Shown here: positions 46,271 to 60,871 of the stretch, one piece after another
How positions within the stretch are numbered: the stretch's first letter is position 1
Layout of the letters: each line of letters begins with the position of its first letter
NCBI GenBank assembly: GCA_000146045.2
Contig: BK006938.2
Span: 1 to 64,000, forward strand
Reading direction: 5' to 3'
Length of the DNA stretch: 64,000 bases
Origin: TPA_inf: Saccharomyces
Taxonomy: Eukaryota
The notes under the pieces: generated by a model
Database searches by the model: none
The model's input: the letters and a program-made list of their open reading frames with translations, nothing else
Told to the model about the DNA's origin: nothing
Made by a program: the position numbers and the translations under genes

Positions 46271-48031
46271 TTAGCAGATGCGCGCACCTGCGTTGTTACC
46301 ACAACTCTTATGAGGCCCGCGGACAGCATCAAACTGTAAGATTCCGCCACATTTTATACACTCTGGTCCTTTAACTGGCAAACCTTCGGGCGTAATGCCC
46401 AATTTTTCGCCTTTGTCTTTTGCCTTTTTCACTTCACGTGCTTCTGGTACATACTTGCAATTTATACAGTGATGACCGCTGAATTTGTATCTTCCATAGC
46501 ATCTAGCACATACTCGATTTTTACCACTCCAATCTTTATAAAAATACTTGATTCCCTTTCTGGGACAAGCAACACAGTGTTTTAGATTCTTTTTTTGTGA
46601 TATTTTAAGCTGTTCTCCCACACAGCAGCCTCGACATGATTTCACTTCTATTTTGTTGCCAAGCAAGAAATTTTTATGGCCTTCTATCGTAAGCCCATAT
46701 ACAGTACTCTCACCCTGGAAATCATCCGTGAAGCTGAAATATACGGGTTCCCTTTTTATAATTGGCGGAACTTCTCTTGTTTTGTGACCACTTCGACAAT
46801 ATGACAAAACATTCTGTGAAGTTGTTCCCCCAGCAACATTACAGTCGTATGTAAATTGACATTGGACTTTTCTTCCTTCAATGATTTCCTCCCTAGCTGA
46901 CCTGGTCGTCACAGTAGCTGACATACCAAGAGATCTTGAAATATGGACAATTCCGTCCATAATGGATGAATAAACAGTTTGAATTGCTATTTTATAAGAT
47001 TCAGGGCCTTCGCCCTTTTTCACAACGTACCCATCTGAGTCGATCAAGCCGGCTAAGAATGCTTCACGAACTTCTATATGCTCGCCGTACATAAATTCAG
47101 GGATTTGCTTCTCTCCATCAAGATCCCTTTTAAACTTTAAAATTGTGACAGCTTTCCAGAATGGATTATTTTTCCTCAAATTCCTTGTCTTCCTGTTTTC
47201 ATCTGGACCATCTCCATAATGAAGCCTTACATGTTTGGCACGTAGCGGAACGTGATCGTCACAAACCGTAAGGTAGAGACCCCAGATTTTCGCATTTTCT
47301 CTTAAACTCTCCATTAGCTTAGGATCCAAGCTATCTACTGAGATTTCTGGCTCTTTTGTTGTACTGTCACCTAACCACAGACCAAGCATCCAAGCCATAC
47401 TTTTTACAGCAGGAGTTACAAGGTCACTACGTCCAGTGAGAAATTTAGATAAAACACCATTTCCTGCGAGTACTGGACCAAATCTTATGCAGCTAGAAAT
47501 TCTCAATTGAGCATCAAGATAATCCAAATCTCTAACTTCAATGTCAAAGTTGAAATATTCTCCTTTAGAGCGCTCCATTTCTTCTATGAAGCGTTTTGCG
47601 GCAAACTCACCTTCAACTGTCATTGGGAATGTCTTATGATGGTTTTTTGGAATTATTATTATCCTACCATCAAGCGTCTGACATTGCTGCAGATTTCTCC
47701 ATCTCACTTTATATTTGGTGGCATTTCTACCACTTTTTTCCAACAGTGGTTTGGTAGGGACCCTGACTGACAATTTATGACCTGCAGTACATTGTAATGC
47801 AAGACGCTGATAAACTGTTCTACGCCTGGGATCTAACCTACCAGGTTCACCTTCAAAAGCTCTGTGTTTGGTTTTTTGCTGTATATTATAGATTTTCTGA
47901 TAGCCCTGTGTGACATTTATGACGCGGGCAGCGGAGCCATCTGCGCACATAACGTAAGAGTTAGCCGTGACGTTTGCGATGTCTTTAATTTCACCGTTAG
48001 CCATCAGAATAGTCGTGTTTTCAGAAAGCAT
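46271..48031 (-). CDS. HO: Mating-type switching homing endonuclease, LAGLIDADG family, intein (Hint)-derived, with C-terminal zinc finger, 586 aa; sequence corresponds to the inactive ho allele
   Basis: ATG at 48031 (minus); LAGLIDSDG motif at residues 327-335; Cys-rich C-terminal zinc-finger region (CRGCC...CVACP...CARC...CINC...CIKCGG); residues A189, S223, S405, L475 match the four substitutions I recall for the ho allele. Confidence 0.95.
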   Translation of the reverse strand: MLSENTTILMANGEIKDIANVTANSYVMCADGSAARVINVTQGYQKIYNIQQKTKHRAFEGEPGRLDPRRRTVYQRLALQCTAGHKLSVRVPTKPLLEKSGRNATKYKVRWRNLQQCQTLDGRIIIIPKNHHKTFPMTVEGEFAAKRFIEEMERSKGEYFNFDIEVRDLDYLDAQLRISSCIRFGPVLAGNGVLSKFLTGRSDLVTPAVKSMAWMLGLWLGDSTTKEPEISVDSLDPKLMESLRENAKIWGLYLTVCDDHVPLRAKHVRLHYGDGPDENRKTRNLRKNNPFWKAVTILKFKRDLDGEKQIPEFMYGEHIEVREAFLAGLIDSDGYVVKKGEGPESYKIAIQTVYSSIMDGIVHISRSLGMSATVTTRSAREEIIEGRKVQCQFTYDCNVAGGTTSQNVLSYCRSGHKTREVPPIIKREPVYFSFTDDFQGESTVYGLTIEGHKNFLLGNKIEVKSCRGCCVGEQLKISQKKNLKHCVACPRKGIKYFYKDWSGKNRVCARCYGRYKFSGHHCINCKYVPEAREVKKAKDKGEKLGITPEGLPVKGPECIKCGGILQFDAVRGPHKSCGNNAGARIC

Positions 48032-48269
48032 TTTAAAGTATAGATAGAATTGATTGCTGCTTATGAGGATATGGATTTAGAGCTAATAGTTGTAATAGAA
48101 ATAAAAGCCATTTAGAATAGGAATTGAATACAATTTTATGAGCTTTAAATATTTAATGATGAATAGTGCGTTTAGAACGCTTCATCATGCTTCAACAAGC
48201 TTCTGCAAACCTCATTTGAGTAGCAATAGCTGTTTACTTTTTTCCGCGACTTTATTCGAAGTTATGGTG

Positions 48270-48895
48270 AACTTTTCGTGGTTTCACACCTAATAACGCC
48301 CAGCGGTAGTACAATTCAAAGTAGTAGGTACCAATGGTAGTACTAGTGGGTGATAGTAGCAAATTTCTCTATGAAAATGAATTGTTGCTCTGCAATGATG
48401 TTAATGTGGACATGACATGAATTTTCGCGATATGTTGATGTAAATAATAACATGATTTTCGTGGATCATTTCGTAAACCATAGGTTTATTTCGTGAATTA
48501 CTAAGAGAAAGGCATAGAAACAGGACTTGCGAACCCTTTCTGTAATATGTCATAATATTTCAATACACGCACAAAAAAGGTACGTTAATTTCCATGGTAA
48601 TCGTGTATTTAGTTACATCACTTTTCGTGACACACATGAATACATTTGCCCTTAAGCCCTGTGTAGGATTGATTTCTTTTTTCGTGACGCACATGTCTTC
48701 AACTGCATCAATTTCCATGAGACACACACGTCTACCATGTTGTCAGATCTCATGAATCTTTCATGTATTCATTCACATCATTTTCGTGGATCCTCTAATT
48801 GTATCGAGATCACTTTTCGTGATCCGCTAATCAGCGACGGTCACATTAGGTTTGCCAAGTCAGGGTATGAACCATACGATCAGTTTTCGTGAACC
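48270..48895 (-). promoter_or_regulatory. HO upstream regulatory region URS2: array of about nine SCB elements (CACGAAA, seen as TTTCGTG on the + strand) plus a1-alpha2 operator-like sites
   Basis: TTTCGTG at about 48273, 48456, 48488, 48623, 48679, 48781, 48815, 48885, plus TTTCGCG at 48422 and TTTCGTAAA at 48469; a1-alpha2-like TCGTGTATTTAGTTACATCA at 48601-48620 and TCATGTATTCATTCACATCA at 48761-48780. The array lies about 240-860 bp upstream of the HO ATG, as for URS2. Confidence 0.85.
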
Positions 48896-49315
48896 TGGTA
48901 CGTATATTGTGGCGTTTGTGTATATTTTCATTCTTTGACAACAATCAATACCAACCTCAAATAGGAAAAGTAATAAGTTTGGCGTTACACCCCAAAAGAC
49001 GCCAAACGGATCGAACTTACTCAATAGCAATTAGCGAGACAAAACCTACGTTAAGACCTGTAACCGATTTATCAAAGCACTCTGCGGTTCTTTCTTGGGA
49101 ATATTACCTGGACATTTTGTGCCCTCAAGAAACGAGGCTCTACGAGCCTGTTGGAGCCCCTCAGACATTAGCCGCCACGAATCAAACTTTTTACGCGATT
49201 CGGCCCAAATCAGTTTCTCACAGATCATTCGTAGAGTGAAAAAGCACATCGATTATTTGATACCCCTTTGGGTTAATTACTGTTGAGGTCTTTTCTATTT
49301 CTGATTGAAATTTTT

Positions 49316-49340
49316 GCTCCAGCATTATAGCATGCTGGTT
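49316..49340. promoter_or_regulatory. Palindromic CCAGCAT..ATGCTGG element about 1.3 kb upstream of HO, candidate Swi5 site of URS1
   Basis: ccagcattatagcatgctgg is a perfect 7-bp inverted repeat carrying two CCAGC half-sites; a further CCAGCA lies at about 49437; the distance from the HO ATG matches the upstream Swi5-binding region. Confidence 0.5.
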
Positions 49341-51114
49341 TTTTTTTTAAATTGATGTATCTCATCGCAGGCACGGGCAGTACAGTGCCCTGAGCGTAGG
49401 GAAAAATGAAAAAAAGGATGTAACTTTTAACATAATTCCAGCACGCAGCGATTGGGTATAATGAAGATTGTTAAGTTCAACAACATGTGAAATTCTTAGC
49501 TCCGCAACTTGCTTGAATTATGAGCTCTAAGATTCAAGAAGTAAATAGGTCATATAATGGAATGATAGTAGTACTTGATAAAGGAACCATGTGATCTTAC
49601 GTTGATATGAAAATAATTCTCTCACAGAAGTCAGTTTGTATGACTAACATAGAGAGTAATTGCTTTTCGGATAAAATCGCACCTAACAAAGATTACCTTT
49701 TGTAAAGCCTCCAGAACAGCTATGAATGTTCGTTATTCTACGCACTTTCTTTCATACATCTTGATCCGCCTTTTTTGATGTAGGTTTTAACGCGGCAAAA
49801 CATATTAATTTTTCTGATTTGGAAAAATAAAGAGTTAGTTCTGCCACGCCATTTTAAGTCCAAAGGCACAATTTTACGTTGGAACTAAACGGTAAAGATC
49901 AAATATCACCTTTATTCTTTTTTGGTATGCATCGATTTCTTTGCCAGTAAGAACTACGTGCAACTCTACATTAGATCAAAATATAACGGATCATAAATGC
50001 AAACAACATTTGTCCAAAAGAAACAAAAATGTTGGCGTTTGTCTCGAACATGACACAATACTCCTTGATCGAGGGACATTGCCCGATTAACTATGATTTA
50101 TACTTTTTACTACAGGTACTCGTTCTCCCTACTATTTCACCAGTATACGGTCGTTTTATGATTCATTTATTGCCTATAATGGTAAAAAGGGACATCTTAA
50201 CCTTACGTGTTGCAATGAGACCATTCTTTTCGATTCATCAACTGTGAAATTTCTGAAATCCAGTACAATGCGAAACGCTACCGATAATGGCACCGTCTTT
50301 TGAATTATGAGGCCCAGATATGGCGTTCAATCTTCAACAAAAAAATGAATATCAAAACTAAATTCTATCTGGATAACAATCTTTCTTTGGTTTGCAGAAA
50401 TATCATTAAAAAACAATCCATAACTACTAAGGAAGGGTATAAATGGTTTGGTTTACTAATTTTATATTTTGATTTGATTAGCAATTATAATCTCTAATAT
50501 ACTATTTCTGTAGCCAAAAATCTGCAATGTCAATAAGTAGCAAGTGCCGCTTACTCGTGAGAATATCAACCTTATAGCATATGTTTTCTATTTTTTTTTT
50601 TTGCTTATGGAGATAATGAACATTGTACACATGAACAAAGTGGTAGTTCTCTCTCCTTGATTTTTTGTGCTTGCGATATATATAATTGTTACATTCAATG
50701 GCCATGCTAAATAAAGGTTTTAGCTTTGTTTCACTCGTGCCCAGGATAATTTTAAGGCGCAAACATCCAAATAATGAAGAAAAGGATAACGATTGTCCCA
50801 GGTCTAAAACATTTTTTAATAATAGCCGTCATTAGCCTTGCAACAGTACAACAACGCCGATGGGAAAGGATTGCAATTCTATTTGTAATTAATAGGTTGT
50901 ATAATAATTTACGATATGGCCTTGTGGTAACTATTTATGAATACTGGTGTAGACTTATTTATAATCCTAGAGAGTAAACCTCTTCTTGTCAAGATATGAA
51001 AAATACAAATTTAGAGACAGAAGTATTACGTGTAAACTTTACAGAACCACTTCTCCATTATAGCTACAATGTGAATTGAACTTTCCTTGAATGTTGAGAA
51101 AAACTATATTAAAA

Positions 51115-57264: not shown

Positions 57265-60200
57265 TTAAATTTCACTCCTAAATCCAAAAGTACCGCCAGA
57301 AATACTTTTTCTCACTCTACCCATGAAACTTTGTTTACCAGCCTGTTCCTCACCTTGCTCGTCGTCATGGTAATCTTGCTCACCCTCATCGGAACCGTAC
57401 TGATGATGTCTTGGAGTGTGCTCGGCTGAATGAGTAGAATTATTATAGTCGTAGTCAGACCCTTTTGAAGAATTCTGTCTGCTGTGACGGTGATGATTGT
57501 GATGATGTTTTGATTTTCCGGAACCCATTGAACCCACCGACACTTTCCTTCCCTGAGAAGTTGTTTCATTATGAATTGAATAGGAAGTGGTTTCTGGGTA
57601 GGTGCCCTCAGATGGCTTTTGAGAACTAGAGGTGTTGGTGTCTTTAAATCCGTATGTTGGGACATGTGGGTCAATCAAACTAGGGAAATTACCAACTTCG
57701 GCAGCATAAGCGTTTGAGGCGTCGGCACCACCAAGGTCGGTTCTACGTTTGTTCTTCAAATCTACTTCACGCTTGTAGCCCGGTGCGTCTTCCTCTAAAA
57801 CTTTCGCATTCTTATTGACATCAATATTATCGTCGCTAGAATATTCTTGATTTTGGGAATTGCCGCCAGAACCGTAACTGGCCTTTTGTTCTGATGATGG
57901 TTCCTGATCGTGAGTCATTCCAGTAATATCTTGTGATTTGGCATATGTAGGGTCCGCATTTTTAATATTATCGTAAGCAGCTGTTTCAGCATCCCCTGAT
58001 TTGGAGTATGTAGTGTCTCCAGATCTGGAATTATCAAAGGCAGCAACATTAGCGTTTTCGAGATGAGTGTCTGTATTTTTACTATCATCAAAAGGGTTCG
58101 AGCTGAAGGTCTTGGATTTTGCACCCATCCTTCCGGTTGTATCTACGTTTCCAGTAGTACCTGTTTCCGGATTATTGGTGAAATCCTTGGCATCGGATGC
58201 AATATCCTGTGTTGTTTTTGCTCTTCTTGGCTCAATTTGGTCAATAAAATTAGAACGCGTTGGAGTTGGGCCTGATTTATTTTTGCTTAAATCAGATAAT
58301 TTTTTGTTACCAGAAGTATTCGAGTATTCGTAATTGCCAAGACTCTCATCTCTTGCAGTCTCCATACCAGCACGGTTAGTGGTTTGCCTTGGAGACAACG
58401 GGTCTTCATCTTGTTTTTGCACTGATTTTGACAACGTATCAGGTTCAAAAGTACCTGGGATTTTCTCTCTCTGCTCATAATTGTAATCCGATGGTTTTCC
58501 CTGGTACGCTTTCTTAGAATACAAGTCGTTTTTCTTTGCATTTGAGTAGTCGTCAATATCATTCTCGTGGTAGTCTTCAACATCATCCAAATAATCCAAC
58601 CCATATTGATGAGGTTTAGTAGAATCTTCATTCATATCTTCGTCCTTCATAGCAGGTGATACAACATTGTTTCGGGTGGTGGCATCATTAGAAAGCCCGG
58701 ACCATTCTGCTTCATGACGGGGTGACATGTCAATATTGTTGTTCGTATTTTGAGAACCAGCTTGTGAACCGGCAACATATTGCAAGTTATCCCTACCATT
58801 ATCATTATACTTCATATGTCCTAATTCGGTTCCCGCTTTAGGCATATTCTGAGATCCAGATGTACCGCTGTCGAATTTCTCCTTCATACTAGAAGGTATA
58901 ACAACATCCTGCAGATTCTTATTTTTACCAGCGCTGGAACTATATTCAATTGGACCCCAATTAGAATCCGTCTTGGATTTAATGTTTTTCTGTTGATAAT
59001 CATCGGCGGATTCCAGAATGTCATCTCTTTCAATGTTAAATTTTTCAGCCGCTCTTTCTGATATATTTTTATTATCAACCTTATTCTTTTCTGGGTGTTG
59101 AATGTTTTTATTGCTATCATGATAAGAAGGTTGCTGGCTTACAAAACCACTTGTCCCGACTGCTGCTTTGGGTTCAGGTTCCATAGTTTGCTGTTGGATT
59201 GCATCAGAACCAGAAACTTGGTCATTTTTCAATCCAGTTTGTTCGCTCTCATCCATCTTCACGTTCTGTGCAATTTCTTTAATTGTATCTTGAGGAGGAC
59301 CAGTCGCAGTGTTGCCAGAGTACTTTCTACGATCTGCAGACTTCGAACTTGTGTCCGTGTAGACACTAGGGTCGACAGCGTTCATACCGGAACTAACATT
59401 ACTCTTTGGGCCTGTACTTGTGTAAACACTAGGATCAACAGGGTTCACATCAGTACCAGTCATGCCCCGGAAACTACCAGGTATGACATCTCGATCTGAG
59501 TTGGAATCAGTGTTCGAATAACCCTTCGTAGCTGAGGAGTTATCTTTAACACTTGTATGTCCATGAGTAACTGAAGGGTTAGTTTTAGTACTGGAATGAT
59601 CCTGTGCAGCAGCGGTGGATTTAGGACCAGTGCTTGAACCAGAGTGACCATGGCTAACAGGGTGGGTAGTTTTGACGTTGATATGTCCATGTGTAGTTGC
59701 AGTGGCTGATGGACCAGTATTCGCTTTAGAATGCTCATGAGTATTGGTAGGAGATGTGGTTTTCACACTGGCATGACCATGTGTGTGAGTGACAGGGGAA
59801 GTGGTAGCACTGGAATGACCATGCGTGTGAGTAACAGGAGAAGTGGCAGCTTTGGAAGTGCTGTGGTTATGAGTGGTTGCAATACTTGGATGCCCTGCAT
59901 CACCTTTGGAATGTCTATGCGCAGTGGGGGACGCCTTTATATTTGAATGTTCATGGCTAGTGGGAGGTGACGTTTTCACTTTGGATTGCTCACTTGTAGC
60001 AGCGGGTGTCGTTGTTTTGACATAAGAGTATCCATGGGTAGTAATAGTAGCATTAGGGCCAGAACTTGACTTGGTGTCGGCAGAAACAGGGTTCACATCA
60101 GAAGTTACGTTGGCACGGCGGTTAGCGTCCGCCTCAGTGTCTTCGTGTGGAGTTTCCGAGTCTTTATTATGCTTCTTCCTCCAAGGTAACAGAATGTTTT

Positions 60201-60405
60201 TAGCCTTGGTTTCCAAATTCTTGGACGTTGATTCGGGCTGTTCTTTTGGTAAGTTATATTCGGTCGGCTTTGTAGTACTGAAAGACTTTTTGCGTTGAGC
60301 AGAATCTGAATTGGAATCATAGGAACCGGGCTTACCACCAAACGAAAAATTATTTTGTTCTTCTTCGCCTTGACCATCTTTGGAAATGGACTCGTTCATA
60401 TTCAT
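57265..60405 (-). CDS. HBT1: Low-complexity Ser/Thr/Asn-rich shmoo-tip protein (Hub1 target), 1046 aa
   Basis: First ATG (plus-strand cat at 60403-60405) gives MNMNESISKDG; track ORF adds 12 codons from a GTG, rejected. Contains a T/H/G-rich tandem repeat region (TSPVTHTHGHS units); length matches YDL223C. Confidence 0.85.
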   Translation of the reverse strand: MNMNESISKDGQGEEEQNNFSFGGKPGSYDSNSDSAQRKKSFSTTKPTEYNLPKEQPESTSKNLETKAKNILLPWRKKHNKDSETPHEDTEADANRRANVTSDVNPVSADTKSSSGPNATITTHGYSYVKTTTPAATSEQSKVKTSPPTSHEHSNIKASPTAHRHSKGDAGHPSIATTHNHSTSKAATSPVTHTHGHSSATTSPVTHTHGHASVKTTSPTNTHEHSKANTGPSATATTHGHINVKTTHPVSHGHSGSSTGPKSTAAAQDHSSTKTNPSVTHGHTSVKDNSSATKGYSNTDSNSDRDVIPGSFRGMTGTDVNPVDPSVYTSTGPKSNVSSGMNAVDPSVYTDTSSKSADRRKYSGNTATGPPQDTIKEIAQNVKMDESEQTGLKNDQVSGSDAIQQQTMEPEPKAAVGTSGFVSQQPSYHDSNKNIQHPEKNKVDNKNISERAAEKFNIERDDILESADDYQQKNIKSKTDSNWGPIEYSSSAGKNKNLQDVVIPSSMKEKFDSGTSGSQNMPKAGTELGHMKYNDNGRDNLQYVAGSQAGSQNTNNNIDMSPRHEAEWSGLSNDATTRNNVVSPAMKDEDMNEDSTKPHQYGLDYLDDVEDYHENDIDDYSNAKKNDLYSKKAYQGKPSDYNYEQREKIPGTFEPDTLSKSVQKQDEDPLSPRQTTNRAGMETARDESLGNYEYSNTSGNKKLSDLSKNKSGPTPTRSNFIDQIEPRRAKTTQDIASDAKDFTNNPETGTTGNVDTTGRMGAKSKTFSSNPFDDSKNTDTHLENANVAAFDNSRSGDTTYSKSGDAETAAYDNIKNADPTYAKSQDITGMTHDQEPSSEQKASYGSGGNSQNQEYSSDDNIDVNKNAKVLEEDAPGYKREVDLKNKRRTDLGGADASNAYAAEVGNFPSLIDPHVPTYGFKDTNTSSSQKPSEGTYPETTSYSIHNETTSQGRKVSVGSMGSGKSKHHHNHHRHSRQNSSKGSDYDYNNSTHSAEHTPRHHQYGSDEGEQDYHDDEQGEEQAGKQSFMGRVRKSISGGTFGFRSEI
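59773..59856 (-). repeat. Two perfect-register 42-bp tandem units inside HBT1, within a larger diverged repeat region of about 59500-60060
   Basis: atgaccatgtgtgtgagtgacaggggaagtggtagcactgga followed directly by atgaccatgcgtgtgagtaacaggagaagtggcagctttgga; on the coding strand these give 14-aa S(A)TTSPVTHTHGH(S/A) units; further diverged copies flank. Confidence 0.8.
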
Positions 60406-60871
60406 ATCTTGGGTTGGGTGATATTCTTGATAGCTCTCCACTGGGAAATCTTCACGGTGTTCGGTATTATTCTTATCTCTACAGTTACATATAAAAAAAG
60501 GTGTTTTTGAGTTAGTTAGTATTATATATTAATTTTCTTGAGGGGGTGGTATTATTAAAGAATTAAATTCAATATTATTACTATTAATTACACTAAGGTG
60601 CCGGGTATTATTGACGTTTTTTTTTTCTTAGTCTCTTTAATGAAGAAGGAAAAAGAACTAAGTTATTATTAGAAGGAAAAGGAGGAGGGGAGGCGAGAAA
60701 GAATGGTGGAGAATAAATGAAAATCTCCAAGAAAAAATTTCAGCACGATACATATGGATTATACCATGTCACAAAAAAATATTTCGGTTGGAGGTAGATG
60801 CAGAGTTATGGTACTGCGAATGTAGGAAGAAAAAAAAAATTAGGAAGTATTTTATGGTGATTATTTCCTTC

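Follow-up and report, generated by a model that had tools for sequence, protein, structure and literature searches.

An array of SCB motifs with interleaved a1-alpha2 operators marks URS2 of the HO promoter

The interval at positions 48270-48895 of the window (the whole 64-kb stretch of DNA analysed here) is almost certainly URS2 of the HO promoter, with nine SCBs and interleaved a1-alpha2 operators. This identity follows from the exact S288C Ho protein encoded downstream, from a position within the published range of URS2, which is -900 to -200 of HO (PMC7806131), and from the number of sites, as nine SBF sites have been reported in URS2 together with a possible SBF site at -1166 (PMC7641740). 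The SCB cluster is real and far above chance, yet it is textbook knowledge already and adds no new biology. The confirmed call does mean that a real cluster of transcription-factor sites was recognisable from raw sequence, in a promoter that serves as a classic model of ordered, chromatin-dependent activation and of the combination of cell-cycle, lineage and cell-type signals.

The gene controlled by the SCB cluster is HO (Ho endonuclease), whose coding sequence at 46271-48031 on the minus strand specifies a protein of 586 aa. This product has the same sequence as 'Hop [Saccharomyces cerevisiae S288C] / Homothallic switching endonuclease' and contains the Pfam families Hom_end_hint, Hom_end and LAGLIDADG_3, that is, Hint and LAGLIDADG homing-endonuclease domains. 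As the ORF is identical to S288C Ho, the initial annotation was correct to name the promoter as that of HO. Measured from the HO ATG, the nine CRCGAAA sites occupy -860 to -249, all of them on the gene strand, and the motif scan combined with the published position of URS2 places the cluster at 48274-48891 (minus strand). The nine sites at the published position also agree with the proposal that URS2 limits HO to late G1, as does the report that, once URS2 is deleted, HO is expressed in anaphase instead of late G1 and loses its mother-cell specificity (PMC5864024). Outside the URS2 cluster, CGCGTAAA at 49190-49197 (minus strand, -1166 from HO) fits the published 'possible SBF site at -1166' (PMC7641740).

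A coding reading of the interval was rejected, since no ORF of at least 80 aa lies within it and the one at 48889-49239 merely begins at its far edge. The latter is a mechanical 116-aa ORF with a GTG start on the plus strand, situated between URS2 and URS1 of the HO promoter, and nothing indicates that it is a gene. An RNA gene was also rejected, as no tRNA and no Rfam family was found anywhere in the 64-kb window. Elsewhere, a C1-3A/TG1-3 telomeric repeat at 1-155 marks the start of the window as a chromosome end, and the long ORF 57265-60441 (minus strand) contains, at 59766-59857, a tandem repeat with a 42-nt unit (2.2 copies, 86% matches).

On the plus strand of the interval there are eight exact copies of the heptamer TTTCGTG, at 48274, 48457, 48489, 48623, 48680, 48782, 48815 and 48885, while the rest of the 64-kb window holds only three copies on either strand. 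Two variants are found on the same strand, TTTCGCG at 48423 and TTTCGTAAA (TTTCGTA) at 48469. The orientation is the same for 10 of the 10 TTTCG cores in the interval, and CACGAAA, CRCGAAA and even CGAAA are absent from the plus strand inside 48270-48895. The recount reproduces what had been described from the sequence, namely eight exact TTTCGTG copies with TTTCGCG and a further variant in some 620 bp, every one in its place, and it bears out the description of the heptamers as co-oriented and irregularly spaced: the exact copies are 32-183 bp apart, and the distances become 12-149 bp when the variants are included (149, 34, 12, 20, 134, 57, 102, 33 and 70 bp between the ten successive motifs). 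A longer shared context had been suggested for many of the heptamers, and TTTTCGTG is indeed present in seven of the eight exact copies, with A or G as the next base in all eight. Read on the gene strand, the extended context PuNNPyCRCGAAA is found at 9/9 sites and is followed by a further A at eight of them; the core takes the CACGAAA form in eight sites and the CGCGAAA form in one.

A search with the Ho protein found a 96%-identical protein (P0001) on L001, a contig from Logan SRR10997049 that contains the whole GCS1-HO intergenic region. The same search gave no match between 61% and 96% identity, and the members named for the 90% cluster were S. cerevisiae only. Nucleotide identity between L001 and the window is 91% in the CDS and 80% in the promoter, and judged by the former value the contig probably comes from a sister Saccharomyces species that is S. 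paradoxus-like. In this footprint, drawn from one relative, 63 of the 63 bases of the nine heptamers are unchanged; identity is 92.5% over the four best operators, as against 73% over the other 491 columns of the interval. At 73% identity the probability of 63/63 matches is approximately 3e-9. Heptamers no better conserved than their flanks were looked for in L001 and not found, and the difference between the heptamers (100%) and the rest of URS2 (73%) in this one related species indicates purifying selection on the SCBs. A tenth CRCGAAA, absent from S. cerevisiae, occurs in L001 at about -557 relative to the HO ATG and is likewise on the gene strand.

The a1-alpha2 operators were located by counting mismatches across the 64-kb window to the 20-bp consensus TCRTGTNNWNANNTACATCA, attributed to Miller et al. 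1985. In the 64 kb, four sites depart from the consensus at one position or none, and all four are in the interval, against an expectation of 0.02; two have no mismatches and two have one, and a fifth site in the URS2 interval has two. The initial annotation had reported a pair of 20-bp operators, and both are real: TCGTGTATTTAGTTACATCA at 48601-48620 (plus strand, no mismatches) keeps 19 of its 20 bases in L001, and TCATGTATTCATTCACATCA at 48761-48780 (plus strand, one mismatch) keeps 20 of 20. The count of two was nevertheless too low, as there are at least four good operators. The two that had been overlooked, TCATGTTATTATTTACATCA at 48436-48455 (minus strand, no mismatches, 19/20 bases kept in L001) and TCATGTCCACATTAACATCA at 48396-48415 (minus strand, one mismatch), are equal to or better than the two reported. 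In L001 the operator at 48396-48415 again matches the consensus with no more than one mismatch, its aligned segment being identical in 16 of 21 columns. The fifth site, a weak a1-alpha2-like sequence with two mismatches at 48691-48710 (plus strand), is of doubtful function and may be non-functional, because it is mostly deleted in L001.

Three weaker a1-alpha2-like sites with two to three mismatches each are found in URS1 on the minus strand (49353-49372, 49416-49435 and 49776-49795), and each keeps 19-20 of its 20 bases in L001. Counting all candidates with 0-4 mismatches, ten distinct candidate operators are spread from -137 to -1764 of HO (48168-49795). The ten HO a1-alpha2 sites are reportedly mapped by Mathias et al. 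2004 (NAR 32:6469). Our total equals the published number, an agreement in number and not site by site; the published ten are of varying affinity, HO(10) being strong and HO(8) weak in EMSA (PMC517709). The claim that the operators impose diploid repression finds support in the literature, through these ten sites (PMC517709) and through the repression of HO by a1/alpha2 in MATa/MATalpha diploids (10.1101/606780).

The nine SCBs given by the motif scan are all on the minus strand and all unchanged in L001. The two farthest from the gene, at -860 (ttCACGAAAa, 48885-48891) and -790 (atCACGAAAa, 48815-48821), are followed by the site at -757 (tcCACGAAAa, 48782-48788), which lies 1 bp from the operator at 48761-48780. 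The SCB at -655 (gtCACGAAAa, 48680-48686) is 4 bp from the weak operator at 48691-48710, and that at -598 (gtCACGAAAa, 48623-48629) is 2 bp from the operator at 48601-48620. Nearer to HO are the sites at -464 (ttCACGAAAt, 48489-48495), at -432 (tcCACGAAAa, 48457-48463), 1 bp from the operator at 48436-48455, and at -398, which has the CGCGAAA form (48423-48429) and is 7 bp from the operator at 48396-48415; the SCB at -249 (acCACGAAAa, 48274-48280) is the closest to the gene. The TACGAAA variant at 48469-48475 (minus strand) falls outside the CRCGAAA consensus and is probably not among the nine functional sites, because it is changed, to TACGAAG, in L001.

The gaps between the five URS2 operators and their SCBs are thus 7, 1, 2, 4 and 1 bp, a closeness that has a probability of approximately 0.001-0.005 when the operators are placed at random, and the four operators retained in L001 have gaps of 8, 1, 2 and 1 bp. 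As every URS2 operator is within 1-7 bp of an SCB, the anatomy suggests that bound a1-alpha2 may hinder SBF at the adjacent SCB, besides recruiting corepressor. The proximity of the URS2 operators to SBF sites is a mildly new architectural point, which may already be in the literature. The longest internal repeat is itself a 33-nt operator-plus-SCB unit, present at 48435-48467 and 48760-48792 with 79% identity, and this repeat raises the prospect that composite operator-plus-SCB units may have been duplicated.

The motif cluster might have arisen by chance in AT-rich intergenic DNA, and the number of TTTCGTG copies in the window as a whole (11, with a shuffle mean of 8.3 expected) is as unexceptional as such a reading would have it. 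It is the clustering that is exceptional, with eight of those 11 copies inside 626 bp. In a null model of 300 dinucleotide-preserving shuffles of the 64-kb window, in which the maximum count per 626-bp span was taken, TTTCGTG/CACGAAA averaged 1.49 and never exceeded 3, compared with 8 observed, and CRCGAAA also reached a maximum of 3, compared with 9 observed. A comparison of motif counts with shuffled sequence had been put forward in the initial annotation as a check, and it comes out clearly in favour of the cluster, at 8-9 motifs against no more than 3. Shuffling of the interval only gave a mean of 0.15 motifs, and the Poisson P for at least eight in the interval is around 4e-14. The GC content of the interval (0.38) is close to that of the window (0.39), so base composition is not the explanation. 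With 63 of 63 motif bases kept in L001 over a background identity of 73%, we consider the likelihood of a chance origin to be practically nil.

It is also highly improbable that the heptamers are relics of a local duplication, i.e. a decayed dispersed or tandem repeat that has no sequence-specific function and owes its orientation to its origin. All copies do have one orientation, and for some the similarity extends into the flanks (two pairs at 79%, of 33 nt and 28 nt, and a family of 18 nt), but tandem structure and a regular period are absent and the longer similarities are fully explained by adjacent operator and SCB motifs, the direct-repeat families being all centred on the TTTTCGTG core or on the operator-plus-SCB pair. 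Relics of this kind are also at odds with the complete conservation of the 7-mers next to flanks at 73% in L001, and with the published mutagenesis of the nine sites, which abolished SBF binding (PMC7641740). A duplication origin can be compatible with function and is no substitute for it. Tandem Repeats Finder reported no array in the interval, and in the rest of the promoter nothing beyond two trivial 10-bp duplications, which upholds the earlier dismissal of a CRISPR or minisatellite; a tandem repeat, minisatellite or CRISPR-like array was rejected here too, given the irregular spacings of 12-149 bp and a conserved unit of just 7-9 bp. The specificities of SBF and MBF overlap, and the CGCGAAA at 48423 looks like a hybrid of MCB and SCB, as might be expected of sites bound mainly by MBF (Mbp1-Swi6) and not by SBF. 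We regard this as very unlikely, considering that ACGCGT, the MCB core, is absent from the 3083-bp HO upstream region, that eight of the nine sites have the CACGAAA form, and that the published ChIP used Swi4, the SBF-specific subunit (PMC7641740).

The preferred reading, which no observation contradicted, is that of a URS2 cluster bound by SBF, and the SBF occupancy of the interval that had been predicted for it accords with published Swi4-V5 ChIP, in which the signal at URS2 is lost once the SBF sites are mutated (9x/10xSBF mutant; PMC7641740; 10.1101/606780). Occupancy of these putative sites by Swi4-Swi6 and the need for it in late G1 rest on published work (PMC7641740; PMC5864024); here the sites are known from their sequence. 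According to the literature, activation would start in mother cells with the binding of Swi5 at URS1 and the recruitment of SWI/SNF, SAGA, Mediator and FACT, after which the eviction of nucleosomes would spread from URS1 into URS2. The SBF sites of URS2 are reported to be nucleosome-occluded until this eviction arrives (PMC7806131), and the recruitment of SWI/SNF, SAGA and Mediator by Swi5 at URS1, with eviction reaching URS2, has been described (PMC7806131; PMC7641740). SBF (Swi4-Swi6) would next bind the exposed SCBs and in late G1 would drive eviction to the TATA box, whereupon HO would fire; binding is reported to be stronger on the left half of URS2, with eviction propagated to the TATA box (PMC7806131; PMC7641740). 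In a/alpha diploids a1-alpha2 on the operators would, as described, shut the promoter off, and from the arrangement of the sites we infer that a1-alpha2 on an operator could sterically hinder SBF at the neighbouring SCB. A GCTGGT at 49334-49339 (-1303) falls where a nucleosome-depleted region bound by Swi5 has been described, at -1300 (PMC7806131).

Nine distant HO loci (L003 and L005-L012) were compared with the two Saccharomyces loci; they include six named species, Naumovozyma dairenensis, Nakaseomyces bracarensis, Vanderwaltozyma polyspora, Zygotorulaspora mrakii, Huiozyma naganishii and Tetrapisispora phaffii, and three further assemblies. In the proximal 1 kb these nine have between 0 and 3 CRCGAAA, of mixed orientation, and the background in their flanking 7-10 kb is 0-0.3 per kb. 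A CRCGAAA pair at about -100 to -330 is present in five of the nine and none is present in the other four. Among the eleven HO loci, the window included, an array of 9-10 co-oriented sites is found only in the two from Saccharomyces, and this restriction of the large co-oriented array to Saccharomyces, among the loci sampled, is a mildly new evolutionary point. One tentative explanation, which we consider possible but on balance not probable, is that the array expanded in the Saccharomyces lineage from a simpler SCB pair (in one orientation or the other, at about -100 to -330) by multiplication of a composite SCB and a1-alpha2 operator unit, the tight 1-7 bp spacing putting the diploid repressor in direct competition with SBF. 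Some elements of this lineage-expansion reading may have been published already.

The interval corresponds to the published URS2, with its SCB or CACGA4 repeats, in gene, position, number of sites (nine) and context (PuNNPyCACGAAAA). No difference was seen, the extra TACGAAA at 48469 being uncounted among the nine published sites. The URS2 SCB or CACGA4 repeats are said to go back to Nasmyth 1985 and to papers from the Stillman laboratory. The SCB cluster of CLN2 shares the CRCGAAA motif and the activator with HO but consists of three SBF sites (PMC7641740), whereas the HO sites are three times as many, extend over about 600 bp and are all co-oriented. The SCBs of HO, unlike those of CLN2, are nucleosome-occluded and dependent on an upstream remodelling cascade (PMC7806131). 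The operators resemble the a1-alpha2 operators of haploid-specific genes (HO, STE5, GPA1, FUS3, RME1 and MATalpha1), which are 20 bp long with half-sites TCRTGT ... TACATCA, and the URS2 matches, like other a1-alpha2 operators, sit upstream of a haploid-specific gene. HO differs in having ten operators of graded quality where most target promoters have one or two, and the operators of URS2, unlike other a1-alpha2 operators, each lie 1-7 bp from an activator site.
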